From the NCBI GenBank assembly GCA_031316235.1, contig JALDRA010000001.1, positions 450,001-482,000 on the forward strand: a stretch of 32,000 bases of DNA. The letters are read 5' to 3'. Of the stretch, positions 9,569-26,950 are shown one piece after another (positions within the stretch are counted from its first letter, which is position 1; each line of letters begins with the position of its first letter). The notes below the pieces were generated by a model. The model saw nothing but the letters and a program-made list of their open reading frames with translations. It was not told the DNA's origin and ran no database searches. A program made the position numbers and the translations under genes. Origin of the DNA: Candidatus Scalindua sp. (lineage in GTDB: Bacteria; Planctomycetota; Brocadiia; Brocadiales; Scalinduaceae).

Positions 9569-11212
9569 ATGAATAAAAAGCTATTGTTCAGTTTATCTCT
9601 ACTATTTCTTCTCTTGTACATGGTACCGCTCAATGTACGCCCTGTTAACACACCGGACGAGACTCGATACGGAGAAATCTCCCGGGAAATGCTGATTACC
9701 GGAGACTTTATTGTTCCCCGGTTGAACGGGCTGAGATATTTTGAAAAACCGGTCCTTGGATACTGGCTGAATGCCGCATCCATGGCTCTGTTCAGCGATA
9801 ATGGTTTTGCTGTTCGTTTCCCATCTGCTCTTGCGGTTGGGCTTACCGCCATGATAATATTTTTACTTGTTCGTCGCTTTCATGGATACGATAAAACCGC
9901 ATTGTTGTCCGCCTTCATCTATATAACATTTATTGTTGTATACGGTGTTGGCACCTTATGCGTGATGGACAGCCTGCTGACTTTTTTCCTGACCGCAGCG
10001 ATGGGCTGTTTTTTTGTTGCCAGCACCAACACGACTGTGAGGAATCGAAACGTGTGGTTATTGCTCTGCGGGGTTTTCTGCGGTGCGGCTTTTCTGACAA
10101 AAGGTTTCCTCGCATTTGCCCTGCTGACGTTGACGGTGATTCCATTCCTGTTGTGGAATAGACGCGGAAGGGATATGTTCACCCTATTGTGGCTTCCTCT
10201 CCTCGCCGCCGTGGCTGTTTCGCTTCCCTGGTGCCTGATGATTGCCTCGCGTGAGCCAGATTTCTGGCGCTATTTTTTCTGGAACGAACATGTACAGCGC
10301 TTTCTCTCGGCAGACTCCAGCATGCATGCTCAGCCGTTCTGGTCCTTGATTCCGGTCTTCCTTGCCGGTGCGTTTCCCTGGATACTGGTCACTCCCATGG
10401 CTATTAGCCAATATAAACGTGAACTTCTCCGTAAACCGCTGATTCGTTTCTCTCTCTGCTGGATGGCTTTTTCGCTGGTGTTCTTTTCGGCTTCTTCAGG
10501 CAAACTAATTGCATATATTCTACCCTGTTTTCCTCCACTGGCAGTGCTTATTGCAATTGGTCTTACCGAATATTTCCGGAGTGGCAGCAAAAGAATGTTC
10601 CACTATTGTACCGTTTTGTCGATTATCATAACGGGCCTGATGGTTACTGCATTGCTTCTCATCGCGTTTACGCCTGCTCTGCACTGGAGGATTTACGGCA
10701 CAGAAGAGGGGCATAAACTGTGGTATTGCGTCTTCGGGGCGGTGTTGTGCCTTGTGATTATGATTAAGACTGTGCGGACACAGGACAGGCTGTGGAAAAC
10801 GGCTACACATGGACTCTCAGCCACCGCCATAATGCTGGTATTTCCTTTCGCTGTGCCGGTAGATAATTTTACCCATGCTGGAATGACAACTTTTCTGGAT
10901 TCTCAGAAAGATCACATAACTACGGATACATTCCTGATATCGGATTACCGAACAGTGCAGGCTGTCTGTTATACTTATAAACGTAAAGACGCCTATCTTT
11001 TTCTCAACAGCGGTGAACTCAGTTACGGGGTGTCCTATCCGGACAGCTCCTGCCGTTCCATCGATACTACCGGCCTGAAAAACCTTCTGCACGAGCGCAA
11101 CCGCCAGGTAGCAATTATCATAAAGGAAACCACGAAGTTAAGAGCCAATCTACCCTGGCCAGAGCCAATATATCAAACTATCTGGAAAGACTACTGGTTT
11201 GCGATATACTAA
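9569..11212 (+). CDS. arnT: Undecaprenyl-phosphate-L-Ara4N:lipid A 4-amino-4-deoxy-L-arabinosyltransferase (ArnT, GT-C/GT83)
   Basis: 547-aa polytopic protein, colinear with E. coli ArnT as I recall it: PDETRYGEISREML (Ec PDETRYAEISREML), LRYFEKPVLGYW (Ec LRYFEKPIAGYW), REPDFWRYFFWNEHVQRF (Ec REPNFWHYFFWVEHIQRF), GELSYGVSYPD (Ec GELKYGLNYPD). Confidence 0.9.
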   Translation: MNKKLLFSLSLLFLLLYMVPLNVRPVNTPDETRYGEISREMLITGDFIVPRLNGLRYFEKPVLGYWLNAASMALFSDNGFAVRFPSALAVGLTAMIIFLLVRRFHGYDKTALLSAFIYITFIVVYGVGTLCVMDSLLTFFLTAAMGCFFVASTNTTVRNRNVWLLLCGVFCGAAFLTKGFLAFALLTLTVIPFLLWNRRGRDMFTLLWLPLLAAVAVSLPWCLMIASREPDFWRYFFWNEHVQRFLSADSSMHAQPFWSLIPVFLAGAFPWILVTPMAISQYKRELLRKPLIRFSLCWMAFSLVFFSASSGKLIAYILPCFPPLAVLIAIGLTEYFRSGSKRMFHYCTVLSIIITGLMVTALLLIAFTPALHWRIYGTEEGHKLWYCVFGAVLCLVIMIKTVRTQDRLWKTATHGLSATAIMLVFPFAVPVDNFTHAGMTTFLDSQKDHITTDTFLISDYRTVQAVCYTYKRKDAYLFLNSGELSYGVSYPDSSCRSIDTTGLKNLLHERNRQVAIIIKETTKLRANLPWPEPIYQTIWKDYWFAIY

Positions 11213-11317
11213 AACCTATTTGGTTTTCGGTTTTACCGGAAACCAAATCCTGGTGAAGGTATACTCGCTCAATTTTATCCCGGATTTAATCCGAAATCCA
11301 GTATGAGATGAGTATAT
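11204..11317 (-). repeat. MITE-like intergenic repeat, copy A (inverted relative to copies B and C)
   Basis: 114 bp. Its reverse complement aligns end to end with 26836-26950 and 21526-21666. It has 7-bp terminal inverted repeats (ATATACT...AGTATAT) and two internal hairpins. Its left terminus (ATATACTAA) contains the last two sense codons and the stop codon of arnT. Confidence 0.8.
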
Positions 11318-11347
11318 ATTAATCAGAACACCGAAAAATATCCGAAG

Positions 11348-11402
11348 CATTACTATTTTTTAATCTATTCTTCATTATGACTTAATGTTTGTTTGTTATA
11401 AT
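11348..11402 (+). promoter_or_regulatory. Phased 4-hexamer module plus -10 box upstream of the cmoA-like gene
   Basis: H1 11348 CATTAC, H2 11359 TTTAAT, H3 11370 CTTCAT, H4 11381 CTTAAT, a 10-nt spacer, then a perfect TATAAT at 11397-11402. It lies about 68 nt upstream of ATG 11470. Confidence 0.55.
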
Positions 11403-11469
11403 GCTCATTTACGGTATGCAGAAGTAGAGGTTTTCTCCTCTCATACATAATTTTTATGCACTGATAGCG

Positions 11470-12216
11470 ATGAATAAAGATACAATTTTTGCAGATAAGA
11501 AAAATAGCATGTCTGACTTTAATTTTGGAAAGGAGACTGCGGCGGTATTTGATGATATGCTTGAAAGATCTGTCCCTTTCTATAACGAAATACAGAGGAT
11601 GTTATGCGAAATAGCGGTGGATTTTGCGGCGGACGGCACTCATGTCTATGATTTAGGGTGCTCCACAGGTACCACCCTTTTAAATATCTGTAAGGCGGTA
11701 AAAAAAGATGTCAGATATATCGGGATAGATTATTCACAAGACATGCTGAACAGGTGCAGAGTAAGGTTTTCTGAAAGCAAGGTAACAAAAGAATACTCTC
11801 TTACCTGCATGGACTTAAACAATGGGATTAATATCACAAACGCATCTGTTGTCATTATGAATCTGACACTGCAGTTTGTGCGTCCTTTGCACAGGGACCA
11901 TATAATAAAGAATATTTATAACGGTTTGTGTGAAAACGGCTGTTTAATCCTCATTGAAAAAGTGCTGGGCAACAACTCTGACTTTAACAGGATGTTCATA
12001 AAATACTACTATGAGATGAAGAAAAGAAATGGATATACTGAACTGGAGATATCACAAAAGAGAGAGGCGTTAGAAAATATTCTCATACCATACCGGTTAG
12101 ATGAGAACAGGGACCTCTTAAAAAAAGCAGGTTTTGACCACTGCGATACGTTCTTCAAATGGTATAACTTTTGTGGTCTGGTAGCATTGAAAAGCAGTTT
12201 GCACTCTCAAAAATAA
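11470..12216 (+). CDS. cmoA: CmoA-like class I SAM-dependent enzyme (carboxy-S-adenosyl-L-methionine synthase homologue)
   Basis: 248 aa, colinear with E. coli CmoA as I recall it: FDDMLERSVPFYNEI (Ec FPDMIQRSVPGYSNI), VYDLGCSTG (Ec VYDLGCSLG), NASVVIMNLTLQF (Ec NASMVVLNFTLQF), NGYTELEISQKREALENI (Ec NGYSELEISQKRSMLENV), KKAGFDH...YNFCGLVALK (Ec HKAGFEH...FNFGSLVALK). No cmoB-like gene is present in the window. Confidence 0.7.
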   Translation: MNKDTIFADKKNSMSDFNFGKETAAVFDDMLERSVPFYNEIQRMLCEIAVDFAADGTHVYDLGCSTGTTLLNICKAVKKDVRYIGIDYSQDMLNRCRVRFSESKVTKEYSLTCMDLNNGINITNASVVIMNLTLQFVRPLHRDHIIKNIYNGLCENGCLILIEKVLGNNSDFNRMFIKYYYEMKKRNGYTELEISQKREALENILIPYRLDENRDLLKKAGFDHCDTFFKWYNFCGLVALKSSLHSQK

Positions 12217-12558
12217 TATGTCTGCTACCCAACCTGGACAGGCCAGAACTAAACAGGAGTTAATAAATAACAAATTTCAAATCACAAACTACAAACAAAT
12301 TCCAATATATGAAATAATATACTAACTTGTTTGTTTTAAAAATAGTTCTTGAGATTTTCTTAATATAAAGAGAAACGTTTTTGGCAGACTGGATTTGTTT
12401 GTGCTTCTAAATCATATTGTTTGGACATTTTGAACTTAATTAATTGGAATTTGTTTGTTATTTGGATTTTATTATTTGGTGCTTGTTAGACGTTCTAAAG
12501 AATTTGTTTTAATAATTTTTTTGACAAAATTGGTTAAAATATTCTTATTAAGAGACTA

Positions 12559-13335
12559 ATGAAGAGCATGAGTGAAATTAAAATACCCTACGGTACAGGC
12601 TTTTTCAGAAAGTCTATGATAAATACCGGCAACATTCTGTTTCGATATAGAAATACGATGTTTTTCATGGTTGGAATCATATTGTTCATCAGCACAAAAC
12701 CAGAATTTATCTTTGAGAGTACGTTTTATGACAATTGTATGGATGTTGCCGGCTTTGCCGTAGCTGTAACCGGACAGATATTGAGGGCTTTGGTGATAGG
12801 CAAAGACTACATCAAAAGAGGAGGAAAAGATAATAAGATGATGGCGAACCGGTTAGTGCAGGGAGGCCTCTTTGCCCATTCCCGTAATCCCCTCTACTTT
12901 GGGAATATCTTGATTATCATTGGCCTGGGTATCATCTATAATTCAGTCTTGGGATATATTACTTCGTATAGTTTCTTCGTCTTTGGATATTTGGCCATTG
13001 TTATGGCTGAGGAAGATTTTCTGAGAACAAAGTTTGGTGTGGAGTACGAGGAATATTGTAAGAGGGTGCCCAGATTTATTCCACGATTTGCCGGAATCAG
13101 AAATACACTGAGTAATGGAGGTTTCGACTGGTTACGTTTCCTAAGGAAGGAATACAACATGATTTGCATATGGGTCGGTAGCGCTATCATTTTAAGGATA
13201 TGGGCAGAGATTCTCCATTTCGGATACGCCGCCAGGAAAAGGGACATATTGGTCATGTCTATATGCCTTATTCCGATTTTAATTTTTTACTGTGTAACAC
13301 GTTATTTGAAAAAAAATAAAAAACTTTCCACGTAG
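12559..13335 (+). CDS. ICMT/PEMT-family integral-membrane methyltransferase (Ste14/LmtA-like)
   Basis: 258-aa protein with multiple TM segments. It carries the family signature LVQGGLFAHSRNPLYFGNILIIIGL followed by AEEDFLRTKFGVEYEEYCKRVPRFIP. Confidence 0.75.
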   Translation: MKSMSEIKIPYGTGFFRKSMINTGNILFRYRNTMFFMVGIILFISTKPEFIFESTFYDNCMDVAGFAVAVTGQILRALVIGKDYIKRGGKDNKMMANRLVQGGLFAHSRNPLYFGNILIIIGLGIIYNSVLGYITSYSFFVFGYLAIVMAEEDFLRTKFGVEYEEYCKRVPRFIPRFAGIRNTLSNGGFDWLRFLRKEYNMICIWVGSAIILRIWAEILHFGYAARKRDILVMSICLIPILIFYCVTRYLKKNKKLST

Positions 13336-13483
13336 GTCCTGCCTGCTCGTCATAATACCAAATTTACTGGTTAATTTTTCGACTGTTATCTCTTATCCTT
13401 CCTGTCACGGAAGAAACATCCACCTGTATTTGTTATAGGTAAGAAGTGGGAGTTTTTCACTCGGTACCAATTAAATTTAAAAA

Positions 13484-14449
13484 ATGAAACAATACAAAAA
13501 ACTCCTGCTCTTATTTTTAACTATAATAATTCTTAGTTGTATTCTTGCTCCTCTCGTAAAAATACCTCTGGATTTTATGTTAGAAAAAGGAGAATTTTTT
13601 GCAGATAGTGTGGACTATGAAAATGGCACATATGATTTTGGCAAGGTAATGAGGCGACTATTAATGCTCGCTGCATTGATAGTGTTTGTGATTTTAAGAA
13701 AGTCTCTGAAAATTTACCCCCTAATGGCTTTAGGCATGAAGCAGAGGTCTGGATGTTTCAGGAAATTTCTTTTTGGCTTCCTAATGGCCATAATTTCGCT
13801 GCTAATTTACTACTCTCTTGCACTGTTTTTCGGTGCATGGATAGTTCACATAGATTATCATTTAGTTGGAATTGTAATATCTAAAATTATCAAATATCTT
13901 TTAGTCGGCTGTCTTATAGGTCTCATTGAAGAGATATTTTTTAGAGGTTTTGTCTTGCAATTCTTTATGAAGGACATGTCCGTAGCAATTGCCGTATGTG
14001 CAACCAGCGCGATTTACTCTGTTCTTCACTTTTTCCAGTCTGAAGTTCTTGTTACCAGAGGGTTTCAGCCATTTGTCGGTTTAATCACTATGTCACATTT
14101 TTTTAAACCTCTTTTTCTTCAATTCATAGAAAACCTGTCTTCAATCATTGGCCTTTTTTTGGTTGGTGTGGTGCTTTCTTATGCATTTCTTCTATCAAAA
14201 TCATTATACCTTTCTATAGGCTTGCACTCAGGATGGGTATTCATGATGAAGGCTGACAGCCTCTTCCTTGTTCGGGTTCGAGAGAAGTATGAGTGGGTTT
14301 TTGGTAATAGTAATCAGTTAGTGACAGGTTTTATTGTATGGGCTTCTCTGATATACGTCTTGTTTATAATAAAGAAGGTTTATCGTAATACTCATAATTC
14401 CGGAGCATATCTCAAATCATCCGATTCAGGCCAGAATTCTTTCAGATGA
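13484..14449 (+). CDS. CPBP-family intramembrane glutamic endopeptidase (CAAX protease / Abi family)
   Basis: 321-aa polytopic protein. Motif 1 is LIEEIFFRGF (EExxxR), motif 2 is SAIYSVLHFF (FxxxH) and motif 3 is IGLHSGWVF (H-containing helix). Confidence 0.75.
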   Translation: MKQYKKLLLLFLTIIILSCILAPLVKIPLDFMLEKGEFFADSVDYENGTYDFGKVMRRLLMLAALIVFVILRKSLKIYPLMALGMKQRSGCFRKFLFGFLMAIISLLIYYSLALFFGAWIVHIDYHLVGIVISKIIKYLLVGCLIGLIEEIFFRGFVLQFFMKDMSVAIAVCATSAIYSVLHFFQSEVLVTRGFQPFVGLITMSHFFKPLFLQFIENLSSIIGLFLVGVVLSYAFLLSKSLYLSIGLHSGWVFMMKADSLFLVRVREKYEWVFGNSNQLVTGFIVWASLIYVLFIIKKVYRNTHNSGAYLKSSDSGQNSFR

Positions 14450-14517
14450 AACACATCTGACGCAAACTTAATTTCGTCAACAACAAGTCTTCTTGTTTAT
14501 CCGCAAAAAAACATCTC

Positions 14518-14572
14518 CATTAACATTTCCTCATCTCCCATTCATCATAACTTAATTTTTAATTGGTATAGT
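14518..14572 (+). promoter_or_regulatory. Phased 4-hexamer module plus -10 box upstream of GT-C paralogue 2
   Basis: H1 14518 CATTAA, H2 14529 CCTCAT, H3 14540 ATTCAT, H4 14551 CTTAAT, a 10-nt spacer, then TATAGT at 14567-14572. It lies about 44 nt upstream of ATG 14616. Confidence 0.55.
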
Positions 14573-14615
14573 ATGAAACTTATTTAACCTATTGATTTAT
14601 TCCTGTTTCTAGTAA

Positions 14616-16406
14616 ATGGCAAAACTTCAATCTATCTGTCCTGACAAGCGAAGCAGAGATCTTGTTATTCTGTTCGTAGGTGGTTTACTCGTGTATTTTA
14701 TGAACATTGGTTCCCTTCCGTTATCTCATTCCGAAGACCGTTGGGGTGAGATTGCAAGGGAAATGGAGCTTTCAAATAATTGGTATACCCCGACGATAAA
14801 TGGAGAAATTTATTGGGACAAACCAATCTTATCTTATTGGGCGATCCTTGGCGTTAAAAAGATCATCGGGAGTCCTCAGCTCAGCGAATGGATAATTCGT
14901 TTTCCGACTCTTCTGGCCAGCTTCCTCATTCCATTCCTTATGTATGATCTTACCTCTTTTTTCTTTAACCGCAAGATTGGTCTAACCGGCGCTTTGATAA
15001 TCTTAACATCCTTTCAAATGTATCAGATTGGACGTGTGGCATCCTCGGACATGTTGAACCTGCTACTTTTTCTGACATCACTTTGGATCTATTTTAAGAC
15101 CGTTCAGAAAAACCGTGGTTTCTGGTGGTGGTTGCTGCTGGGCTTTATTATAGGAGTCAATTGCCATATCAAAGGGTTGATTGGAGTGCTTCCGTATCTG
15201 GTTATCTTGAGTCACAGGATTTTCAGCCATGGTTTCAAATCTCTCTCCCGGGAATTCTTATTCCGTTTTTCTCTAAGTACCTTCCTGGCAGGGACTATTT
15301 ATCTGGGTATGTGGTGCTGGATACTTGGAGATGTAATCAATACAATAAGCGGAATATATACCTATCTGATCTCTGGTTCGGCGGATGCTCTACCTTTACC
15401 GTTACGCATGGTTATACAGGAAAATCTAAACAGAGTTGCTACTGATTCAATAGACCATAAGAATCCTCCATGGATTTATCTGGAAGCGCCCTTCTCTTTT
15501 CTATTTCCCTGGTCTCTCTTTTTACCGGGTGCATTGGTCACATGGTGGCGGGACAGAAAAATGACAAAGGATAAAAAAGAACCATTCGGGATCTGGTTTT
15601 TTTCTCTCCTCATCTTTTTCTCCTTAATGTCTTCAAGAAGGCCGTATTATCTTTTACCGGCCATACCAGCTGCTGCGGTTCTTATTGCCGTGCATATCCA
15701 TCTGCTGATTAAATGTGATGAAACCAGCGGCATATCCGGCAACTTAAGAAAAAGAAGTGTGTTCATATACGGACTTTTACTGACATGTCTGGTTTTCACT
15801 ATGGGAGCCTTGCTTATTTTTGTTTCCGGTTCTGTTCCTGAGAGACTCAATTCTGTCTATTTGTATCCGTCGGGCATAGCTTCTTTTGTTATTGGAGGAA
15901 CGCTTTTGGTTGTTGCCGTAAAGAAGAGTTTTTCTACGGTAATTAATACCTTCACCGTTTTTTTAATTCTTCTTATTATTGTCGTAAACTTAAGTCTTCC
16001 GGATATCGGAAATAATTCTACTTTCAGAGAATTTACGAAAATAGTGAATGAGAAAACTTTAAACAAAAGAGTTGTTCTTTTTCTAGTAGATAACGCCAAA
16101 CTTATATACGGACTGGAGCATCCACCTTATCCATGTGTTCCTTCTGAGGTAAATGCATCTCCGGAAGAGTCAGTGAGACAACTTGTCGAAGAAACTGCTC
16201 CTGGTGATTTTGTTTTGTTAGAAAAGAGAAACCTTTCCCTTCTTTCAAGATTGAATTATGAACTCATACTTGAGGAACTACCCAATCCCTCCTACCTGAA
16301 GATGGAATGGAAAAACGGACCAAAAATTATTCCCAACGAAAACCATATCAAGAAGAAAACATTACTCTTATTACGTATTCTTAACCATGACTCCCAAAAG
16401 AAATAG
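14616..16406 (+). CDS. ArnT/PMT-family GT-C glycosyltransferase (paralogue 2, acceptor unknown)
   Basis: 596-aa polytopic protein. The first periplasmic loop, HSEDRWGEIAREMELSNNWYTP...IYWDKPILSYW, reproduces the ArnT/PMT_2 D-E-x-R...E-I-x-R-E and [FW][ED]KP motifs. It has a soluble C-terminal domain of about 130 aa. Confidence 0.8.
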   Translation: MAKLQSICPDKRSRDLVILFVGGLLVYFMNIGSLPLSHSEDRWGEIAREMELSNNWYTPTINGEIYWDKPILSYWAILGVKKIIGSPQLSEWIIRFPTLLASFLIPFLMYDLTSFFFNRKIGLTGALIILTSFQMYQIGRVASSDMLNLLLFLTSLWIYFKTVQKNRGFWWWLLLGFIIGVNCHIKGLIGVLPYLVILSHRIFSHGFKSLSREFLFRFSLSTFLAGTIYLGMWCWILGDVINTISGIYTYLISGSADALPLPLRMVIQENLNRVATDSIDHKNPPWIYLEAPFSFLFPWSLFLPGALVTWWRDRKMTKDKKEPFGIWFFSLLIFFSLMSSRRPYYLLPAIPAAAVLIAVHIHLLIKCDETSGISGNLRKRSVFIYGLLLTCLVFTMGALLIFVSGSVPERLNSVYLYPSGIASFVIGGTLLVVAVKKSFSTVINTFTVFLILLIIVVNLSLPDIGNNSTFREFTKIVNEKTLNKRVVLFLVDNAKLIYGLEHPPYPCVPSEVNASPEESVRQLVEETAPGDFVLLEKRNLSLLSRLNYELILEELPNPSYLKMEWKNGPKIIPNENHIKKKTLLLLRILNHDSQKK

Positions 16407-16419
16407 GAAACTAATTGCC

Positions 16420-16571
16420 ATGAAAAAAAAGGAGTGGTCGGTTTATCTTTCCAGTTTCTTTTGTTGTACATAGCGCCACTGAATGCATGTTTTGTTGCTG
16501 CACCTGATGAAATGCGATACGGAGAGATAGCCCGGGAATTGCCTGAGAGAAAAGCTACACAAATTGATTAA
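16420..16571 (+). pseudogene. Frameshifted 5' remnant of an arnT-type gene
   Basis: ATG 16420 gives MKKKEWSVYLSSFFCCT*. Shifting one frame from about 16449 gives ...FLLLYIAPLNACFVAAPDEMRYGEIARELPERKATQID* (stop 16569-16571). Compare arnT (9569): MNKKLLFSLSLLFLLLYMVPLNVRPVNTPDETRYGEISREML. Only about 45 N-terminal codons survive. Confidence 0.7.
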
Positions 16572-16682
16572 GGTACATCAATTCTGGAGCAATCCTCAAA
16601 TCACCAGGGTTAGCATAAGATTATCATCCCCGCAAACGCTGTATCACCATTCATTTCATACATCCAGGTTACATAAGTTTCA

Positions 16683-16738: not shown

Positions 16739-16825
16739 CGGAAAATTCATTTTCAGAATTATTGAAAATAGTACCTTCGAGTAATGATATCTTCTTACCT
16801 TCTCAAAGGAGTCAGGGAAAATAGT

Positions 16826-18524: not shown

Positions 18525-18602
18525 CATTAACATATCTTAATCTTTCCTTCATAATTTATTAACCTTTGCTTCACCATTTCTTAATGCTTGACTTTATATA
18601 CT
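18525..18602 (+). promoter_or_regulatory. Extended phased hexamer array plus -10 box upstream of GT-C paralogue 4
   Basis: 18525 CATTAA, 18536 CTTAAT, 18547 CTTCAT, (18558 ATTAAC), 18569 CTTCAC, 18580 CTTAAT, all on an 11-bp register. The -10 box is TATATA at 18595-18600 or TATACT at 18597-18602. The array starts 2 bp after the stop of the upstream paralogue. Confidence 0.5.
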
Positions 18603-20351: not shown

Positions 20352-20354
20352 CAT

Positions 20355-21521
20355 ATGACCAGAAATAGTTTTCTCCCATTTTCAAGACCAGACATCGGCC
20401 AGGCAGAGATTAACGAAGTTGTCAGGGTTCTCTCCTCCGGATGGATAACCTCCGGCCCAAAAGCAGCATCCTTTGAGAAGGCATTTGCAGAATATGTCGG
20501 CTGCCCCTACGCATTGGCCCTGACCTCCTGCACTGCAGGCCTCCATCTGGCGATGGAAATAGTCGATCTGCAGCCTGGTGATGAAGTAATCACTACCTCT
20601 CTCACCTGGCCGGCAACCGTAAATATGATTCACCTGTGTGGAGGGAGACCGGTATTTGTTGATGTGGAACGGGAGACCTTCAATCTCGATGTGTCACAGG
20701 TTGAAAAAGCCGTTACGAAACGGACAAGGGCAATCCTCCCGGTTCACTTTGCCGGTCAGGCTTGTGAACTTGAAAAACTCAGGGAGATTTGTAAAGGTCA
20801 CGGTATCGTGTTAATCGAAGATGCTGCCCATGCCATTGGCAGTGAGTACAAGGGAAAGCGAATTGGTTCCGGGGACAATATGGCAGTTTTCAGCTTTCAC
20901 CCTATCAAGAACATGACTACCGGAGAAGGCGGCATGATCACAACACACGACGAAGAGACCTATGAAAGGCTTCGTCTCTTACGGTTCCACGGAGTTGATA
21001 AAGACGCATGGAAGCGGTATGGCAGCGCCGAAAAGGAAGGCTATGATCTGATAATTCCGGGGTGGAAGTACAATATGACCGACATTCAGGCTGCGCTGGG
21101 TCTCGTTCAATTGGAGCGCCTGGATACAATGATCGAAAAGCGCATGACGCTGGCCTCGCTGTATGATGATCTGCTCATGGAAGTAGAAGGGATAACACGT
21201 CCCCGCAGGGTCCTCTACGATATAAGACACTCCTGGCACCTCTATACGATACTGGTGGACAAGGAGAAAGCAGGGATATCACGTGATGAATTCATGCAGG
21301 AGATGAAGAAACGGAACATAGGAACTGGTATTCATTTTCTTGCCGTTCACCAGTTATCGTTTTACCGAAAGCATTATCCCTTACCTGACGGTTCGCTGCC
21401 GGAAACCGTATTTATATCAGAAAGAGTCGTTTCCCTTCCACTCTATTCCGGTATGAATGAAAGTGATGTACACGACGTAGTTGCAGCAATCAGGGATATA
21501 ATTGAGAAATTCGGAAAATGA
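20355..21521 (+). CDS. arnB: UDP-4-amino-4-deoxy-L-arabinose--oxoglutarate aminotransferase (DegT/DnrJ/EryC1 family)
   Basis: 388 aa. SFLPFSRPDIGQAEINEVVRVLSSGWITSGPK matches E. coli ArnB [32 protein letters not shown] as recalled. VFSFHPIKNMTTGEGG contains the PLP-lysine motif. Confidence 0.9.
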   Translation: MTRNSFLPFSRPDIGQAEINEVVRVLSSGWITSGPKAASFEKAFAEYVGCPYALALTSCTAGLHLAMEIVDLQPGDEVITTSLTWPATVNMIHLCGGRPVFVDVERETFNLDVSQVEKAVTKRTRAILPVHFAGQACELEKLREICKGHGIVLIEDAAHAIGSEYKGKRIGSGDNMAVFSFHPIKNMTTGEGGMITTHDEETYERLRLLRFHGVDKDAWKRYGSAEKEGYDLIIPGWKYNMTDIQAALGLVQLERLDTMIEKRMTLASLYDDLLMEVEGITRPRRVLYDIRHSWHLYTILVDKEKAGISRDEFMQEMKKRNIGTGIHFLAVHQLSFYRKHYPLPDGSLPETVFISERVVSLPLYSGMNESDVHDVVAAIRDIIEKFGK

Positions 21522-21525
21522 GTAT

Positions 21526-21666
21526 GTATCCTCATCTCATAATGGTTTTCGGATAAAATCCGAGATAAAATTGAGCGAGTAAGGCCCTCGGCGTTTTTTG
21601 TCCGGGGATACCTTCACCAGGATTTGGTTTCCGGTAAAACCGAAAACCAAATCGGTTTTAGTATAT
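21526..21666 (+). repeat. MITE-like intergenic repeat, copy B (carries a ~27-bp internal insertion)
   Basis: It aligns with copy C and with the reverse complement of copy A. The left end is degenerate (GTATCCT versus ATATACT). An extra segment, AGGCCCTCGGCGTTTTTTGTCCGGGGA, sits between GAGCGAGTA and TACCTTCACC. The copy lies in the 274-bp gap between arnB and arnC. Confidence 0.8.
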
Positions 21667-21801
21667 GATGTTTTAAGAGATATCCCATTGCCGGTAAACG
21701 GTAATTACCTGAATATCTGCGCATTGAGGTTGAGAGGATGAGATCAGTTTTACTATGTTCATGGCAGATGTTTGCTTTCGGGAAAGGAATGAGCGTTGTT
21801 A

Positions 21802-22758
21802 ATGGAAAATAAAATACCTTATCTTTCAGTAGTGGTACCTGTATTTAATGAGGAAAAGAATATCAGGGAACTTGCAGAACGTCTGAATATGGCCTTGAAG
21901 GATGTGGGACGTCTTTATGAAATACTATTCATCGATGATGGAAGTTCTGATAATTCACTCAAAATCCTCAAGCACTGCCAGACTGAGATTCCCGGCATAA
22001 CGATAATAGAATTCAACCGGAATTATGGGCAGCATGCCGCTATTTTTGCCGGATTTGAAAAAAGTTCAGGAGAGATAGTTGTAACGCTGGATGCCGATCT
22101 TCAAAATCCTCCGGAAGAGATCCCGAAACTTTTAAACAAGGCGGAGGAGGGATTCGAAGTCGTTGCAACTGTGCGTACAAATCGTAAAGATTCAATTTTC
22201 AGAAGGGGTGCCTCTTATGTAATAAACAGGATCACGGCAAAAATTACCGGTGTCAATCTTAAGGATTACGGCTGTATGTTACGGGCATATAGAAGAAACA
22301 TAGTTCAACTGATGTGCGAATCAAAGGAAATCTCAACTTTTATTCCCGTCCTCGCCACATCATATGCCAAGAATACGACCGAAATCGAGGTGAAACATGA
22401 TCCGCGTCGCGGTGATGAGACAAAATACAGCCTTACCCGTCTTATCTCGCTCCAATTTGATCTCATGACCAGTTTCTCAATCTGGCCGCTGAGGATGCTC
22501 ATGCTTGTTGGACTCGTGGTTTCACTGGCAGGAGTTGGTTTCGGTGTTTTCCTCCTCGCGGTAAGAATAATTATGGGAAGTGAATGGGCAGCCGAGGGTG
22601 TTTTTACCCTCTTTGCCGTACTCTTTTTCTTCGTGGGCGGGCAGTTTCTCGCCTTTGGCCTTCTCGGAGAATACATTGGAAGAATCTACTCCGAGGTGAG
22701 GAGAAGACCGAGGTTTGTAATCGAGAATGTACACACAAAGGAGAAAAATAAGGAATGA
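21802..22758 (+). CDS. arnC: Undecaprenyl-phosphate 4-deoxy-4-formamido-L-arabinose transferase (GT2)
   Basis: LSVVVPVFNEE..YEILFIDDGSSDNS..NRNYGQHAAIFAGF..TLDADLQNPPEEIPKLL..DYGCMLRAYRR..WAAEGVFTLFAVLFFFVGGQF..GEYIGRIYSEVRRRPRF is colinear with E. coli ArnC as recalled. The track start 21796 is TTG; the first ATG is 21802. Confidence 0.9.
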   Translation: MENKIPYLSVVVPVFNEEKNIRELAERLNMALKDVGRLYEILFIDDGSSDNSLKILKHCQTEIPGITIIEFNRNYGQHAAIFAGFEKSSGEIVVTLDADLQNPPEEIPKLLNKAEEGFEVVATVRTNRKDSIFRRGASYVINRITAKITGVNLKDYGCMLRAYRRNIVQLMCESKEISTFIPVLATSYAKNTTEIEVKHDPRRGDETKYSLTRLISLQFDLMTSFSIWPLRMLMLVGLVVSLAGVGFGVFLLAVRIIMGSEWAAEGVFTLFAVLFFFVGGQFLAFGLLGEYIGRIYSEVRRRPRFVIENVHTKEKNKE

Positions 22759-23678
22759 GGATCATTGTAATGGGGTATCACGCTATTGGATGCCGATGTC
22801 TTAAATATCTCATAGAGGAGAAAGAGCATATAGTGGCAATCTTCACTCACAAAGATAATCCCGGTGAGAACCTGTTCTTTGATTCGATGACTGAACTCGC
22901 CCGATTGCATGGTATCCCCTGCTACATGCCGGAACATATCAATACCCATGAGTGGATATCACTGATAGAAGGGCTTTCTCCCGACGTCATATTCTCGTTT
23001 TACTACCGTAATTTAGTTTCTCGGCAAATCCTTGATATCCCGAGGCTCGGAGCCATAAATCTCCACGGTTCACTTCTCCCAGAATACAGGGGGCGCTGCC
23101 CCGTTAACTGGGTGCTGGTAAATGGAGAGAAAGAGACAGGGGTTACCCTTCATTATATGGTGGAAAAAGCTGATGCCGGTGACATCATTGCACAAAGGAA
23201 AATTCCTGTTTTATTCGATGATACCGCCTATAGTCTTTACAAAAAAACGGAGAAGGAGGCCGTAACAATTCTTGATGAAACATTGCCACTGATAAAAAAG
23301 GGAAAAAACAACAGGATACCGCAGGATCTGTCACGCGGTACGTATTTCGGAGGAAGAAAACCTGATGACGGAAGGATACACTGGGAAAGGAAGAATTCTG
23401 AAATCTATAACCTTGTAAGGGCGGTAACCCACCCCTGGCCGGGTGCCTTCTGCTTTTTCAGAGAGAAGAAGGTCTTTATCTGGCAATGTCTGCCTTTATC
23501 TGTCAATGGTCATCACAAACCTGGTAATTTGATCTCTTTTGATAAGGAGGGAATAATTGCAGCTGCCGGCAAAGGGACACTATTATTGAAAAGATGTCAG
23601 ATAGAGGGAGAAGAAGAAAAAAGCGGTTATGAATTTGCCCAGACATATGTTCTCCGTGAAGGAGAAATGTTTACTTAG
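22755..23678 (+). CDS. arnA: UDP-L-Ara4N formyltransferase (stand-alone homologue of the ArnA N-terminal domain)
   Basis: 307 aa. [46 protein letters not shown] matches E. coli ArnA [46 protein letters not shown] as recalled. The start overlaps the arnC stop (ATGA at 22755-22758). Confidence 0.85.
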   Translation: [307 protein letters not shown]

Positions 23679-23713
23679 TGTCGGGAAGATAACTGTCCAT
23701 CTACTGCGTTATG

Positions 23714-23769
23714 GTAATAATTCCGTAATCCTCACGTACTTGAGTACGTTCCGGTTACACAATTATTAC
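23714..23769. other. 56-nt imperfect nested hairpin in the spacer between the two arnA halves
   Basis: GTAATAATT (23714-23722) pairs with AATTATTAC (23761-23769). GTAA (23725-23728) pairs with TTAC (23755-23758). ACGTAC (23734-23739) pairs with GTACGT (23744-23749) around a TTGA loop. Confidence 0.5.
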
Positions 23770-23848
23770 ACGCCTTGTCCCTGGGCAGTTCTCGTCCAAA
23801 CACCGGGTTTCTATTCAAGCACTACTTAGCATTTAAAAGGAGAAAAAA

Positions 23849-24901
23849 ATGAAGATTCTTATTTTAGGCGTAAACGGTTTTATTGGACATAGTCTTGTCA
23901 ATCGGATTTTAGAATTAACTGACTGGAAAGTATTTGGCATGGATCTGTCATCTTCGAAGCTGACAGATTCAATACACAATTCACGATTCCACTTTATTGA
24001 AGGTGATATCTCTATCCACAGGGAGTGGGTTGAGTATCACATCAAAAAGTGCGATGTGATTCTTCCCCTTGTAGCCATTGCAACACCTGCTCATTATGTT
24101 AAAGAACCGCTTCGGGTTTTTGAGCTTGGTTTTGAAGAAAACCTCCGCATCGTTCGCCTGTGTGTGAAATACGGCAAAAGAATCCTGTTTCCATCGACTT
24201 CTGAAGTATATGGTATGTGTGACGAACCAGAATTTTCGGAGGAGACGAGCAACTTTGTACTTGGCCCCATAAAGAAGCAGCGGTGGATTTACTCATGCGC
24301 AAAACAGCTTCTTGACAGAGTCATCTGGGCATACGGGTCTGAAGGAAGGCTGGATTTTACCCTTTTCAGGCCCTTCAACTGGATAGGCCCAAGGCTTGAT
24401 GACATCGATGCCGCCAAAGAAGGCAGTTCCAGGGTAGTAACACAGTTCATTATAAATATTGTGATGAACGAGCCGCTCAGACTGGTTGATGGGGGAATGC
24501 AGAAAAGATGCTTTACGTATATAGATGACGGGATAGATTGCTTAATGAAGATTATTGAAAACAGAAATAGCGTGTGCAGCGGAGAGATTTTCAACATCGG
24601 TAACCCGAATAACGATTGCAGTATGAGGGAGCTTGCTGAGAGACTGCTTGATTTGTACAGGAAACATCCTGAAACAGAGGCGTATGCAAGTACCTCTCGA
24701 ATCCTTAACGTAAATTCGAATGAGTACTATGGTGAGGGATACCAGGATATCGTTGCAAGGAAACCCTCGATAAAAAAGGCTCAGGAGCTCTTAGGATGGG
24801 AACCTCAGATAAACCTGGACAAAGCTCTTGAAAATACTCTTGATTTCTTTATCGAGGAAAGCAAGGTAAATGGTTTGATATGCGCATCTACAGCCATTTA
24901 A
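23849..24901 (+). CDS. arnA: UDP-glucuronate oxidative decarboxylase (stand-alone homologue of the ArnA C-terminal SDR domain)
   Basis: 350 aa. MKILILGVNGFIGHSLVNRILE is the Rossmann GxxGxxG motif (Ec ArnA RVLILGVNGFIGNHL). The catalytic YSCAKQ (YxxxK) is present. An AAAGGAG RBS precedes ATG 23849. Confidence 0.85.
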   Translation: MKILILGVNGFIGHSLVNRILELTDWKVFGMDLSSSKLTDSIHNSRFHFIEGDISIHREWVEYHIKKCDVILPLVAIATPAHYVKEPLRVFELGFEENLRIVRLCVKYGKRILFPSTSEVYGMCDEPEFSEETSNFVLGPIKKQRWIYSCAKQLLDRVIWAYGSEGRLDFTLFRPFNWIGPRLDDIDAAKEGSSRVVTQFIINIVMNEPLRLVDGGMQKRCFTYIDDGIDCLMKIIENRNSVCSGEIFNIGNPNNDCSMRELAERLLDLYRKHPETEAYASTSRILNVNSNEYYGEGYQDIVARKPSIKKAQELLGWEPQINLDKALENTLDFFIEESKVNGLICASTAI

Positions 24902-25779
24902 TATCACTAAAAATTGATGTGGACACTTATCGTGGCATGGAAAAGGGTGTTCCTGTGCTCCTGGATATTCTCCGAAGCCATGATATAAAGGCATCCTTCT
25001 TTCTCTCGTTTGGTCCTGATAACTCTGGAAAAGCGATATGGAACATATTTCGAAAGAAGGGGTTTCTCTCAAAGATGGTGAGGACCGGTGCCCCCCGCCT
25101 CTATGGCCTGAAGACGATGCTTTACGGGACACTGCTTTCCGCCCCCCTTATAGCTTCTGCATTTCCGGATCTTACGAGGCAGATAGCTGAAGAGGGGCAC
25201 GAAATAGGCATCCATGCCTGGGATCACAGGCTATGGCAGGACAACCTCGATAAGCTCTCAGAAAGAAAGATCAGTGAAGAATTCGAAAAGTCATTCAGTT
25301 CATTCAAAAATATCCTGGGAATTACCCCGAAAGCAACCGCAGCGCCTGCCTGGTCCTGCAATTCCCGGAGTCTTAAGATCCAGGATTCATTAGGTCTCGA
25401 TTACTCAAGCGATACAAGAGGAGTATTGCCTTTCTATCCACGTTGTAATGGCCAGGTATTTAAGACACTCCAGATACCAACAAACCAGCCATGTATTGAG
25501 GAATTGATTGGCCTTGATTTTGTAAATAGTGACAATCTGGTTGAATACCAGGTTTCCCTCCTGAAACAATACATACAGAATGTGATTACAATTCACGCGG
25601 AAGTGGAGGGTGGAATATATAAAGAACAATTTGACCAATTTGTCAGAAAAACAATTTGCAAAGGTTACCGGTTCTGCCCTTTGAATTCAATTGCTGCAGA
25701 CTTTCATGGTGCCCCGGCAAGGAGCCTAGAGCACGGTCATCTTCCAGGAAGGAGCGGGAGAGTGGCAATTTCCTCCTGA
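24880..25779 (+). CDS. arnD: 4-deoxy-4-formamido-L-arabinose-phosphoundecaprenol deformylase (polysaccharide deacetylase fold)
   Basis: 299 aa. LKIDVDTYRGMEKGVPVLLDILRSHDIKASFFLSFGPDN matches E. coli ArnD [39 protein letters not shown] as recalled. ...ITIHAEVEGG... matches Ec YTIHAEVEG. It overlaps the preceding gene by 22 nt. Confidence 0.85.
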   Translation: MRIYSHLISLKIDVDTYRGMEKGVPVLLDILRSHDIKASFFLSFGPDNSGKAIWNIFRKKGFLSKMVRTGAPRLYGLKTMLYGTLLSAPLIASAFPDLTRQIAEEGHEIGIHAWDHRLWQDNLDKLSERKISEEFEKSFSSFKNILGITPKATAAPAWSCNSRSLKIQDSLGLDYSSDTRGVLPFYPRCNGQVFKTLQIPTNQPCIEELIGLDFVNSDNLVEYQVSLLKQYIQNVITIHAEVEGGIYKEQFDQFVRKTICKGYRFCPLNSIAADFHGAPARSLEHGHLPGRSGRVAISS

Positions 25780-25791
25780 TAGGAATTTTTT
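25770..25791 (+). terminator. Weak candidate intrinsic terminator at the arnD stop
   Basis: TTCCT (25770-25774) pairs with AGGAA (25781-25785) around a 6-nt loop that contains the TGA stop, followed by TTTTTT (25786-25791). The stem is only 5 bp and AT-rich, so support is marginal. Confidence 0.25.
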
Positions 25792-25808
25792 ATGGATCCT
25801 TGTTTACA

Positions 25809-26588
25809 TCACGTTTTTTTGACAGGATAAAATCTGGCCGGGTCCTGCTGATAGTAAAGCATGAACTCTTCATAAAGCTCCGGATATTTCCGCTTGAGTT
25901 GTACAGGTTTTTCGAAGAAACACTCCGTGACTACAGCAAAGAATTCCGCAGGGTTTGTAGCGCCGTATCTGTCCATCACGGTACGCCTTCCATGCTCGGT
26001 ATCCTTTCTGAACCTGACATATTCAGCGCCAAGTACCCGTGCCCACGCAAGATACATTGATCTTCTCTCCATGACGGGTGACCCGCGCGATTCGCCACCA
26101 TCATGATCAATCTGATGGGCGAATTCATGAAATACGACGTTGTGTCCGTCATGGATATCAGCCGCGCCAGAGAGAACGTCACTCCACGATAAGACCACGG
26201 CTCCCCGGTGCCACGACTCACCAAGTCTGACTGATTCTCCTTCTGCTAAAATCCCATTTCCTACAGATCGAGACTCATGCGCTACATATGCGCTGGGATA
26301 GACCACAATAGACTTAAGAGCATGGTAGTAATCAGTCTTCCGGTGGAGCAGTAGAATGCATGCCTGAGCGGCAATCGTAACCTTGATCTCATCGTTGATC
26401 TGTAAGCCTCCGCATCCTTCAAATTTCTTCTCATGGAGGAAGATGAGAATATGGCCATGCAGCTCATTCCGGTCAGCTTCCGGCAGGTACCGGTATAAAG
26501 GGACATTGCGTTCTACAATAATGAGCCAATCCGTTGGAAATGGGGCCATACGAAGCTGCTTTCTTCGACGTTGTCTAAATCCGAACAT
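25809..26588 (-). CDS. mtfA: MtfA-like zinc-dependent peptidase (M90 family)
   Basis: It carries the HExxH motif in VVFHEFAHQIDH. The C-terminus NPAEFFAVVTECFFEKPVQLKRKYPELYEEFMLYYQQDP matches E. coli MtfA [39 protein letters not shown] as recalled. The track start 26603 is TTG. ATG 26588 (MFGFRQRRRK...) follows GAGGAA at good spacing. Confidence 0.8.
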   Translation of the reverse strand: MFGFRQRRRKQLRMAPFPTDWLIIVERNVPLYRYLPEADRNELHGHILIFLHEKKFEGCGGLQINDEIKVTIAAQACILLLHRKTDYYHALKSIVVYPSAYVAHESRSVGNGILAEGESVRLGESWHRGAVVLSWSDVLSGAADIHDGHNVVFHEFAHQIDHDGGESRGSPVMERRSMYLAWARVLGAEYVRFRKDTEHGRRTVMDRYGATNPAEFFAVVTECFFEKPVQLKRKYPELYEEFMLYYQQDPARFYPVKKT

Positions 26589-26611
26589 ACTCAGATTCCT
26601 CAATCTTCATG

Positions 26612-26840
26612 TTAGAAAACATGACTAATCATGGGGTGCATTACCACTTCCCTCCGCCCATTCACCAACTGGTATCGTGTATCATAAAGCCCTCCTCGTA
26701 AGTGGAGAGATAAGGCGATGCAGTTTCTCCATTTCGGCCAACTCCAGGTTGAAGTCTCTCGCCGCACGTTTGCGATCGTGATGGTCCCACCCGTTAGTGA
26801 GCAGAACACCGCCAATATCCAGAAACAGCGTCGTAATATA
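26612..26840 (-). pseudogene. Decayed HAD-superfamily hydrolase fragment (N-terminal ~50-75 codons, frameshifted, no start)
   Basis: The reverse-strand frame starting at 26840 reads YITTLFLDIGGVLLTNGWDHHDRKRAARDFNLELAEMEKLHRLISPLTRRAL* (stop at 26684-26682), with a HAD motif I-like FLDIGGVL. The expected continuation (..TYEEG..) appears only after a frame change (STYEEGFMIHDTSW*). The track ORF 26612-26845 is a different frame of the same remnant, and its ATG lies inside repeat copy C. Confidence 0.55.
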
Positions 26841-26950
26841 CTCATCTCATAATGGTTTTCGGATAAAATCCGAGTTAAAACGGAGCGAGTATAACTGCAA
26901 CCAAGCTTTGGTTTTTAGAAAAATCTAAAACCAAATCGGTTTTAGTATAT
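26836..26950 (+). repeat. MITE-like intergenic repeat, copy C
   Basis: 115 bp: ATATACTCATCTCATAATGGTTTTCGGATAAAATCCGAG...GGTTTTTAGAAAAATCTAAAACCAAATCGGTTTTAGTATAT. It has 7-bp terminal inverted repeats. Hairpin 1 is TCGGAT-AAA-ATCCGA. Hairpin 2 has an apical stem different from but complementary to that of copies A and B. Confidence 0.8.

Follow-up and report, generated by a model that had tools for sequence, protein, structure and literature searches.

A probable IS630-type miniature inverted repeat transposable element (MITE) family in the anammox planctomycete Candidatus Scalindua

Repeat copies in the window

The DNA analysed here (the window) is a stretch of 32,000 nt from Candidatus Scalindua sp. 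(GenBank assembly GCA_031316235.1, contig JALDRA010000001.1, positions 450,001 to 482,000, forward strand). It includes an arn-type lipid A modification cluster, and three copies of a repeat, A, B and C, adjoin gene edges of this cluster. An earlier note, made from the sequence alone, had placed the copies at 11204-11317 (minus strand), 21526-21666 (plus strand) and 26836-26950 (plus strand), and all three are confirmed. A 21-nt 3′ motif and a 24-nt 5′ motif of the repeat are each found exactly three times in the window without a mismatch, and 100 dinucleotide-preserving shuffles contain no match to them, even with three mismatches allowed. With a covariance model run with its filters off, the only real copies in the window are again these three. 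A transposase is not present within the window, in agreement with the note. The features of the copies are listed below; TIR denotes terminal inverted repeat.

11207..11314, minus strand: copy A (putative MITE), short form, 108 nt without the duplicated TAs; 126 bits
11205..11206: TA next to copy A, half of the putative target-site duplication; seen in the sequence itself
11315..11316: TA at the opposite end of copy A, second half of the putative target-site duplication; seen in the sequence itself
21529..21663, plus strand: copy B (putative MITE), 135 nt; 89 bits
21527-21528 and 21664-21665: TAs flanking copy B; read from the sequence
21582..21608, plus strand: nested 27-nt GC-rich hairpin of type G3, AGGCCCTCGGCGTTTTTTGTCCGGGGA; from alignment of short and mid-size copies
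26839..26947, plus strand: copy C (putative MITE), short form, 109 nt; 130 bits
26837-26838 and 26948-26949: TAs flanking copy C; read from the sequence
26855..26873, plus strand: hairpin 1 of copy C, TTTCGGAT-AAA-ATCCGAG; left arm within the left TIR block TGGTTTTCGG
26907..26937, plus strand: hairpin 2 of copy C, TTTGGTTTTTAGA-AAAA-TCTAAAACCAAA; the right arm is the right TIR inner block

An ArnT-like open reading frame (9569-11212) runs into the plus-strand end of copy A, TACTAAAAC, which supplies its final codons and its TAA stop (11210-11212), and the protein end ...WFAIY* is encoded by this end of the repeat. For copy A, the reading of the flanking TAs as a target-site duplication draws on the family-wide pattern N-TA-[TACT...AGTA]-TA-N and on empty sites elsewhere. 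Copy B starts 7 nt past the TGA stop of a DegT/ArnB-like open reading frame (20355-21521), or 5 nt when the flanking TA is counted, and stands between the ArnB-like and ArnC-like genes. Its first bases are TCCTC, where TACTC is found otherwise. It is longer than the other two because the separate 27-nt G3 hairpin is nested inside it, between two internal TAs at the junction of two parts of the repeat, module 1 and module 2. Copy C belongs to a subfamily with the hairpin-2 apex TTAG-AAAAA-TCTAA, and the same variant is found in loci L085, L041, L010, L024, L086 and L118.

Family size and distribution

At least 119 stretches matched the 3′ motif in a scan of the genome collection, nearly all from Scalindua or Scalinduaceae metagenome-assembled genomes (MAGs). 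An nhmmer search gave 180 matches, 114 of them full-length with flanks, and most of the flanks are unrelated. Thus at least 114 full-length copies were recovered from about 1 Mb of sampled sequence, representing several Candidatus Scalindua and Scalinduaceae genomes; as lower bounds, at least 54 copies belong to RBC_AMX3, at least 30 to SCAELEC01 and at least 19 to CBDCUS01. In these marine anammox bacteria the element is scattered between genes, with dozens of copies in a genome. A few contigs that bear the element are filed under unrelated phyla and may be mis-binned.

The copies are 108-230 nt long and non-coding, and none of the 114 lies inside an open reading frame of 120 aa or more. They are present in every type of intergenic region, and for many the distance to a gene end is only a few nt or some tens of nt. 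Relative to tandem genes 31 copies have the same orientation and 22 the opposite one, which is no bias. The earlier note had suggested a search for copies elsewhere; those found are not parts of segmental duplications. Two short-read contigs (L125 and L126) end inside copy B. To our knowledge this family has not been described before.

Ends of the element and the TA duplication

The ends of the element are sharply defined (TACTCATC...GGTTTTAGTA). The true TIRs, TACTCATCTCATAATGGTTTTCGG on the left and TACTAAAACCGATTTGGTTTTCGG on the right, span about 24-26 nt and are imperfect. The left TIR and the reverse complement of the right end are identical at 16 of 24 positions, where the random mean is 6.6, and the parts identical in both are the first 4 nt and the 10-nt inner block TGGTTTTCGG at positions 15-24 from each end. 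All 114 full-length copies with flanks display the pattern N-TA-TACTCAT...TTTAGTA-TA-N. The earlier note described TIRs of 7 bp and saw no clear target-site duplication. Inverted ends do exist, but only four of those seven bases belong to the true TIR. The filled and empty sites described below show a duplicated TA, and the “7-bp TIR” is therefore composed of one flanking base (the outermost, which is variable), the TA duplication and four true TIR bases. The target-site duplication is thus TA, and it was hidden inside the claimed TIR.

Insertion at a TA dinucleotide with duplication of the TA is seen in two independent comparisons of filled and empty sites. Copies at L009:7586-7699 and L015:6936-7050 interrupt members of a different repeat family, of which many intact copies exist; the empty sequence CCTTG-TA-CCTGGG (L001, L044, L025 and L051) is found as CCTTG-TA-[element]-TA-CCTGGG in L009 and L015. 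The other comparison is from an orthologous arn locus, L127, where a copy lies inside the DegT 3′ end (AGGGATA-TA-[element]-TA-GTAGAG). This site is empty in L128 (AGGGACA-TA-GTAAAG), and the same spot is empty in L129 and in the window. Neither L128 nor L129 has a copy at the ArnB-ArnC junction, which in the window is filled downstream of the stop codon; the L127 copy at this junction is inside the gene and has the orientation opposite to that of the window copy. Two further arrangements involve a TA: at L001 a single TA is common to two head-to-head copies, and at L106 a sister MITE is nested at a TA within a copy.

For copy C no orthologous empty site was found, the L128 sequence beyond the M90 peptidase gene being too diverged to align, and the site of copy A is outside the span of the fetched orthologous arn loci. 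At the level of the compared sequences, the orthologous sites demonstrate a presence/absence polymorphism, and these comparative data suggest that the element is mobile.

IS630-family relatives

An IS630 transposase sequence served only as tblastn probe, and what follows rests on the L079 sequence and its database homologues. The search showed that L079 contains the 3′ portion of an IS630 transposase, which stops 20 nt before ...CCATTTCGTAATGAGTA and an adjacent TA. Homologues of the L079 transposase have the domains PF13358 (DDE_3) and PF13592, and the source databases give several of them the name IS630 family transposase. Locus L130 contains a complete 1.12-kb IS630 element with TA flanks and both TIRs, and L123 contains a near-complete one. 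The IS630 candidates come from Scalinduaceae, one Brocadiaceae genome and metagenome contigs.

These Brocadiales elements (L130, L123, L079 and L120-L122) share with the MITE the TA flanks, TIRs that begin with TAC(C/T)CAT and an inner block GTTTT(C/A)G that is equally far from the end. Their identity to the MITE left TIR is 16-20 of 24 nt: 18-20 of 24 for five IS630 right TIRs (random mean 6.6 of 24) and 16 of 24 for both TIRs of the complete L130 element, the IS630 TIRs recovered being mostly right ends only, from truncated copies. The likeness is confined to the ends, as the IS630 elements are 1.12 kb long and encode a DDE_3 transposase, whereas the MITE is non-coding. In the roughly 1 Mb sampled, no IS630 element has TIRs identical to those of the MITE, the closest being the 18-20 of 24 matches; thus the IS630 elements are candidate partners only. 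The mobilising partner itself may be extinct.

Among the 119 fetched loci, an autonomous parent was also sought as TIR-like ends 0.7-3 kb apart. Only separate MITE pairs, the IS110 insertion of L115 and the sister MITE with a group II intron of L106 were found. A candidate 2.1-kb unit, L085:2275-4435, proved to be a pair of separate partial copies with unrelated genes (toxin-antitoxin, flavodoxin-like) in between, and multi-copy open reading frame clusters in the fetched loci, considered as possible transposases, are ordinary paralogous genes.

Size classes and nested hairpins

The copies fall into size classes of about 114, 141 and 165-230 nt because small GC-rich hairpins are nested in them at fixed points. 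At least four kinds of GC-rich palindromes of 27-33 nt (G1-G4) occupy such points. At least 58 family copies contain the G3 insert of copy B, which is not confined to MITEs: L093, for instance, has it in tandem outside them. G1 is found in the loops of both hairpins, and one G2 lies inside another G2. Larger insertions are an IS110 element in the loop of a nested G3 hairpin and a group II intron inside the nested sister MITE. A TTTTA target for the nested GC-rich hairpins was considered; it fits three loop insertions and fails for the copies outside MITEs.

It is possible, though rather less likely than not, that mobile DNA of several ranks, all of it structure-seeking, uses the MITE as a landing pad. 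If the GC-rich palindromes were undescribed tiny mobile elements that target extruded hairpin loops, they would constitute a natural record of hairpin-targeted transposition. These nested repeats are the only part of the system that might repay more work.

Hairpins, covariation and rival explanations

The hairpins described in the earlier note are present, and when folded as single-stranded DNA of either strand each window copy folds clearly better than its shuffles (z = -3.0 to -5.5). Together with the closeness of many copies to gene ends, this could be expected of an element that is a structured RNA or has turned into one (such as an sRNA, a transcript-stabilising or processing hairpin, or a terminator), with its hairpins kept by selection. 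Selection on structure had been proposed in the note from copy C. In copy C and its subfamily three apical pairs of hairpin 2 are changed on both arms, with pairing kept (GGTTTTTAGA-AAAA-TCTAAAACC, versus GGTTTCCGGT-AAA-ACCGAAAACC in copies A and B). This compensatory change is real, yet it marks a subfamily. Module 1 has further double changes in its outer stem (TACAC..GTGTA in L009 and L015, TATCC..GGATA in L057). In an alignment of 109 copies, 15 cells are changed on both sides where 9.1 are expected (reached by 7 of 500 shuffles) and 7 pairs have double changes where 4.3 are expected (22 of 500), counts that are inflated by an alignment fitted to the structure and by the kinship of the sequences through descent. 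The 40 short copies have 5 such pairs where 3.2 are expected, a number reached by 61 of 500 shuffles and not significant. However, the percentage of paired cells is practically that of controls with shuffled partners, 91.0% versus 90.7% in the 40 short copies and 89.6% versus 89.3% in the 109. The two apical pairs of hairpin 2 are unpaired in 65-75 of about 103 copies, and the commonest apex is mismatched. The pairs of hairpin 1 are formed in 97.8% of cases across the 109 copies and are almost invariant, and therefore they are uninformative on selection. The well-paired positions vary hardly at all and fall on TIR blocks, and the outer stem of hairpin 2 consists of the conserved 10-nt block of the right TIR and an internal inverted copy of the same block. 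Also against an RNA role are the lack of any strand or orientation bias with respect to neighbouring genes, loops that accept insertions of 27-110 nt, and the absence of Rfam matches (none at the gathering score over the whole window, none at E <= 1 over copy B). A canonical intrinsic-terminator tail is not present, and promoter and terminator scans are near the shuffled expectation (34 versus 33.2 +/- 5.1 and 21 versus 13.3 +/- 4.1). A structured RNA is thus improbable. Covariation is weak across the 109 copies and selection on structure only weakly supported, although the small excess of pair-preserving double changes leaves room for some structural constraint. Among the outcomes that the note had named as counting against its proposal, weak covariation with more copies aligned is the closest to what was found, and none was found in full.

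The presence of two prominent hairpins, one near each end, would also suit a palindromic element of the REP/RAYT type or one derived from IS200/IS605 (PATE), moved as single-stranded DNA by a Y1/HUH transposase that recognises subterminal hairpins; REP-like GC-rich hairpins are moreover nested in the element, and in three cases they adjoin TTTTA (on the opposite strand). However, such elements have no TIRs and make no target duplication, whereas the element here has both, the TA duplication being displayed by the two empty-site comparisons, and its ends resemble those of IS630-family DDE elements. The TA duplication therefore largely refutes this reading, to which we give hardly any credence. 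A different proposal concerns the origin of the unit and is compatible with a MITE: two or three independent smaller mobile modules may have fused, a 54-nt mini-MITE (module 1, with ends TACTCAT../..GCGAGTA) and module 2 meeting at a shared TA. The internal ...GAGCGAGTA-TA-... junction mirrors the left end, the G3 hairpin is found exactly between the two TAs at the junction, and divergent relatives in other MAGs (L093, L102, L008, L031 and L052) keep module 2 with a different module 1. Against this, the loci examined contain no free-standing module 1 flanked by a TA duplication of its own. The apparent solo modules in L051 and L085 are truncated copies, and that at L018:3917-4007 still has the two outer ends and is an internal deletion. 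Such a fusion is conceivable, but the odds are rather against it.

Discussion

The three repeats very probably represent a MITE, and hence a non-autonomous DNA transposon, of IS630/Tc1-mariner type and with a basic form of about 110 nt. The earlier note had called the element MITE-like, and this is borne out by more than 100 dispersed copies with unique flanks, the TA duplication, the insertion polymorphism at the arn locus and the IS630-like TIRs. The element would be cut and pasted in trans by the DDE transposase of an IS630-family insertion sequence of the same lineage, whose N-terminal helix-turn-helix domains would recognise the terminal and inner blocks of the TIRs. It should be noted that the match of 16 of 24 between the two TIRs of the MITE is low for an efficiently mobilised element. 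The internal hairpins are by-products of the way the element is built: within module 1 its own left end is repeated in inverted form, and in hairpin 2 the right TIR block pairs with an inverted copy of itself inside the element. Larger sizes result from other small GC-rich palindromic repeats that landed at fixed points, mainly in hairpin loops; in rare cases the insertion is a sister MITE, an IS110 element or a group II intron.

Elements of similar design are RUP of Streptococcus pneumoniae and Nezha of cyanobacteria. These are likewise non-coding and about 100-150 nt long, with TIRs, a TA duplication and tens to hundreds of intergenic copies, and their TIRs resemble those of IS630 elements of the same lineage. 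The element described here is not known to be related to them in sequence, is hosted by an anammox planctomycete, has unusually dissimilar TIRs and internal inverted copies of TIR blocks, and is a scaffold for several nested GC-rich hairpins. The Correia elements (NEMIS) of Neisseria have a TA duplication, TATA... ends and TIRs of about 26 nt, a likeness that is architectural only. Both they and the Scalindua element adjoin or overlap gene ends and have a strong hairpin potential. Correia size classes of about 105 and 155 nt arise by internal deletion, whereas those found here, about 114, 141 and 165 nt or more, are due to other small repeats that inserted into the element. For Correia elements, functions as promoters, in IHF binding and in RNase III processing are documented.

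The family accounts for three intergenic blocks that would otherwise be puzzling in the arn-type lipid A modification cluster of the window. Copy A gives an ArnT-like gene its stop codon, and in a related genome another copy truncates an ArnB-like gene, the last codons of which are rewritten. The family also matters for the assembly and binning of anammox metagenomes, in which short-read contigs are broken at the copies, and whether an orthologous site has a copy or lacks it is a ready-made marker for strain typing of Scalindua populations. In its biology the element is an ordinary selfish one, a tidy example of a well-known class of selfish DNA and not a new kind of RNA or regulatory structure.

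Copies of the element and adjacent genes

Sequence alignment and a repeat finder both place a repeat of about 115 bp at the three positions given for it in an earlier note, and the hairpins named there are present in the sequence.

Copies of the MITE in the window
11204-11317, reverse strand: MITE copy A
21526-21666, + strand: MITE copy B
26836-26950, + strand: MITE copy C

The copies are alignable end to end, save for a 27-nt insertion in copy B. The window has three exact occurrences of the 3′ motif AACCAAATNGGTTTTAGTATA and three of the 5′ motif CTCATCTCATANTGGNTTTCGGAT, and neither was matched in 100 shuffles with up to 3 mismatches tolerated. On both strands every copy gives a better fold than its shuffled versions (z = -3.0 to -5.5). 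A covariance model run with filters off recovered these three as the only real copies in the window. The MITE right end has weak partial matches elsewhere (9203-9223 on the - strand and 2145-2205; TACGAAATTGGTTTTAGGATA, 3 mismatches; covariance model E = 0.93), which may be old remnants or chance.

The window encodes an RND efflux system, a two-component system and an arn-type cluster for lipid A modification. The cluster comprises four ArnT/PMT-like paralogues, a DegT/ArnB-like aminotransferase, a GT2/ArnC-like transferase, a deacetylase, and domains of the formyltransferase and epimerase types; the other genes are for M90 and M50 peptidases and a glycogen phosphorylase. Each of the three copies sits at the edge of a gene. 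The ArnT-like ORF 9569-11212 runs into copy A, and its last codons and TAA stop are supplied by the flanking TA and the MITE end. Copy B starts 7 nt past the aminotransferase stop codon (5 nt counting the flanking TA), and copy C has a HAD-like fragment on one side and the end of the M50 peptidase gene on the other. This fragment, a HAD-hydrolase-like reading frame (ITTLFLDIGGVLLTNGWDHH...; 26612-26835, - strand) that adjoins copy C and has no in-frame start codon, is probably what is left of a gene that lost its 5′ end when copy C inserted or later.

A separate 46-nt motif is present at 705-750, 6641-6686, 9365-9410, 11349-11394, 14519-14564, 18526-18571 and 18548-18593, about 50-200 nt upstream of most + strand efflux, two-component and ArnT-like gene starts. 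It consists of TTAAnn-like hexamers with 11-nt spacing (e.g. ATTAAC-ATATC-TTAATC-TTTCC-TTCATA), looks like the direct-repeat boxes of OmpR/PmrA-type response regulators, and may mark out the regulon of the neighbouring two-component system (6737-8888).

Element ends and target site duplication

The pattern N-TA-TACTCATCTCATAATGG...GGTTTTAGTA-TA-N is conserved in all copies, with the outermost base variable. Several lines of evidence from sequence comparison show that the flanking TA is a duplicated target. Two MITE copies (L009:7586-7699 and L015:6936-7050, in loci fetched for comparison) are inserted in a second family of MITE-like repeats (about 175 nt). This family has numerous uninterrupted copies, in which CCTTG-TA-CCTGGG stands where the two interrupted ones have CCTTG-TA-[element]-TA-CCTGGG. 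The second empty site is in L127, an orthologous arn locus with an aminotransferase 85% identical, where the MITE is found in reversed orientation within the final ten aminotransferase codons: AGGGATA-TA-[element]-TA-GTAGAG as compared with AGGGACA-TA-GTAAAG in Scalindua sp. AMX11 (L128). This site is also uninterrupted in the window and in a further orthologous locus, L129, and the copy B site is empty in both L128 and L129. In addition, L001 has a head-to-head MITE pair with one TA in common, and in L106 a TA within a main-family copy holds a nested sister MITE.

The earlier note had seen no clear target-site duplication, which the two empty-site comparisons show to be wrong. Of its 7-bp terminal inverted repeat (ATATACT/AGTATAT), the inner four bases are indeed the element end; the rest is one flanking base plus the TA duplication and is not part of the TIR.

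The second family has the ends TAGTGTTTGAACGAAAAC...GTTTTCGTTCACGCACTA, with many copies in the fetched loci (e.g. L001:314-481, L044:2521-2678) and a diverged copy in the window at 23663-23828, in the gap separating the formyltransferase ORF from the epimerase ORF. At L127:7144-7258 the MITE at the 3′ end of the ArnB-like gene alters the C-terminus (383 vs 388 aa). Scalindua sp. AMX11 has an additional LPG_synthase_TM gene between ArnB and ArnC (L128:7164-8129), which is reduced to a short remnant in the window (21667-21795) and in L127.

Terminal inverted repeats and probable transposase lineage

The MITE left end TACTCATCTCATAATGGTTTTCGG and the right end, which reads TACTAAAACCGATTTGGTTTTCGG when reverse-complemented, show 16/24 identity, and the 10-nt block TGGTTTTCGG is identical in both TIRs. 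The window has no transposase gene, as previously noted, and none adjoins any copy elsewhere. A probe search showed that L079, from a Scalinduaceae genome, opens with the 3′ portion of an IS630-family transposase, followed by ...CCTAAAACCATTTCGTAATGAGTA|TA. Database homologues of this transposase have Pfam DDE_3 (PF13358) and HTH_33 (PF13592); several are labelled IS630 family transposase, some of these from Brocadiaceae and Kuenenia. The contigs encoding the homologues provided four additional IS630 right ends. Contig L123 has a near-complete IS630 element and L130 a complete one, both of about 1.12 kb, the latter with TA on both sides and the TIRs TACCCATCGCGATTTAGTTTTCG and TACCCATTGCGTTTAGGTTTTCG. 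The MITE left TIR displays 18-20/24 identity to the five IS630 right TIRs and 16/24 to both L130 TIRs; random pairs have a mean of 6.6/24, and 15 or more is reached in 0.06% of them. A sister MITE family (~180 nt, TIR TACCCATYGCAAAWTGGTTTTCGG; copies at L011:4156-4337, L032:6614-6795, L064:3793-3973 and L106:429-2506) is nearer to the IS630 ends than is the main MITE.

Insertion at TA with TA duplication is a hallmark of the IS630/Tc1-mariner superfamily, and the MITE is therefore assigned, as a putative member, to the IS630/Tc1-mariner type.

Internal organization and nested palindromes

In the basic MITE two modules meet at an internal TA-TA. Module 1 (TACTCATCTCATAATGGTTTTCGGATAAAATCCGAGATAAAATTGAGCGAGTA) holds hairpin 1, and its end is an inverted copy of its own start. 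Module 2 holds hairpin 2, the right arm of which is the right TIR block and the left arm an internal inverted copy of that block. Size classes of about 114, about 141 and 164-230 nt exist because small GC-rich palindromes of 27-33 nt (G1-G4) nest at fixed points, mostly hairpin loops.

Palindromes nested in the MITE
G1: CCTGCCTGTGCG..CGCACGCAGACAGG; hairpin 1 loop or hairpin 2 loop
G2: CCCGCCCGGCCTGTCAGCCGTTCGGACGGG; hairpin 2 loop
G3: AAGTCCTCGGCGCCTTTTGTCCGGGGA; module junction (the copy B insert, window 21582-21608)
G4: CCGCCTGAACGACATGTCGGGCAGG (approximate); spacer

G1-G3 are clearly found outside MITEs as well, in intergenic DNA and at times in tandem; G4 has only two diverged matches outside MITEs. 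G2 is also nested within G2. The palindromes are REP-like repeats, and the pattern is at most suggestive of MITE hairpin loops as favoured targets of putative tiny GC-rich palindromic mobile elements. Nested or free sites are seen at L016:1793, L082:2203, L103:7148, L017:4296, L040:3551, L093:2962 and L009:256-452.

At L115:4440-6277 the loop of a MITE-nested G3 hairpin holds an IS110-family element whose reading frame is apparently split (ORFs of 283 and 121 aa), consistent with the known preference of IS110-family elements for REP-like hairpins. In L106 the nested sister MITE is itself host to a group II intron that encodes a 415-aa reverse transcriptase.

Conservation of the stem loops

The earlier note regarded the altered but still paired apex of hairpin 2 in copy C as a sign of selection on structure. 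Pairing in the module-1 stem, hairpin 1 and hairpin 2 was assayed in 40 short copies: 91.0% of cells are paired, vs 90.7% with partners shuffled, and 5 pairs have changed on both sides vs 3.2 expected, a number reached in 61/500 shuffles. In 109 model-aligned copies 89.6% of cells are paired (89.3% shuffled). Here double changes are found in 7 pairs (4.3 expected; reached in 22/500 shuffles) and 15 cells (9.1 expected; 7/500), a small excess from an alignment biased towards structure and from sequences related by descent. This excess lends slight support to the proposed selection. Against it are the paired fraction, which is close to that of the shuffled controls, and the two apical pairs of hairpin 2: the most frequent apex (CCAG-TAAA-ACCG) is mismatched, which leaves these pairs open in 65-75 of about 103 copies. 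The copy C apex, TTAG-AAAAA-TCTAA, is common to at least six other copies and is thus a subfamily marker; the TIR block in the right arm of its hairpin 2 is nearer to the IS630 version (TGGTTTTAG). The well-paired positions are nearly invariant and fall on the TIR blocks.

No Rfam match was obtained with the window or copy B, orientation relative to neighbouring genes shows no bias (31:22), and no copies are within long ORFs. Consensus scans for promoters and terminators stayed near the shuffled level, with 34 promoter-like sites against 33.2 +/- 5.1 and 21 terminator-like sites against 13.3 +/- 4.1. The copy C terminal mini-hairpin contains two of the terminator-like sites. The hairpins follow mainly from the way the element is put together. 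Some weak constraint on structure could act on the DNA as transposition substrate, or via hairpin-templated repair.

Distribution and relation to known elements

One pass with the 3′ motif over 185,579 species-representative genomes found at least 119 stretches, so the further copies that the earlier note proposed to look for exist. Among the matches listed, almost all are from Candidatus Scalindua sp. SCAELEC01, Scalindua sp. RBC_AMX3, Scalinduaceae CBDCUS01, S. arabica and two Planctomycetota MAGs. A profile built on the three window copies gave 180 matches in the fetched loci, 114 of which are full-length and have both flanks, with at least 54 copies in RBC_AMX3, 30 in SCAELEC01 and 19 in CBDCUS01. 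Flanks are mostly unrelated, thus the copies do not belong to segmental duplications; in the few cases of common flanks, the copies are located within other repeat families.

Two short-read contigs (L125 and L126; Logan, SRR28338161 and SRR28338162) have the exact aminotransferase of the window and stop 35-39 nt into copy B, and the repeat therefore breaks assemblies. MITE-bearing contigs L042, L092, L093 and L102 are labelled Neomarinimicrobiota, Marinamargulisbacteria or 'uncultured bacterium', which may be mis-binning.

The designation MITE-like is borne out by the TIRs, the TA duplication and the dispersed copies, at least 114 of them full-length with both flanks. RUP, Nezha and Correia elements are nearest in architecture, and we know of no published description of this family. 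The element works like an IS630-type bacterial MITE and has the defining features of one.
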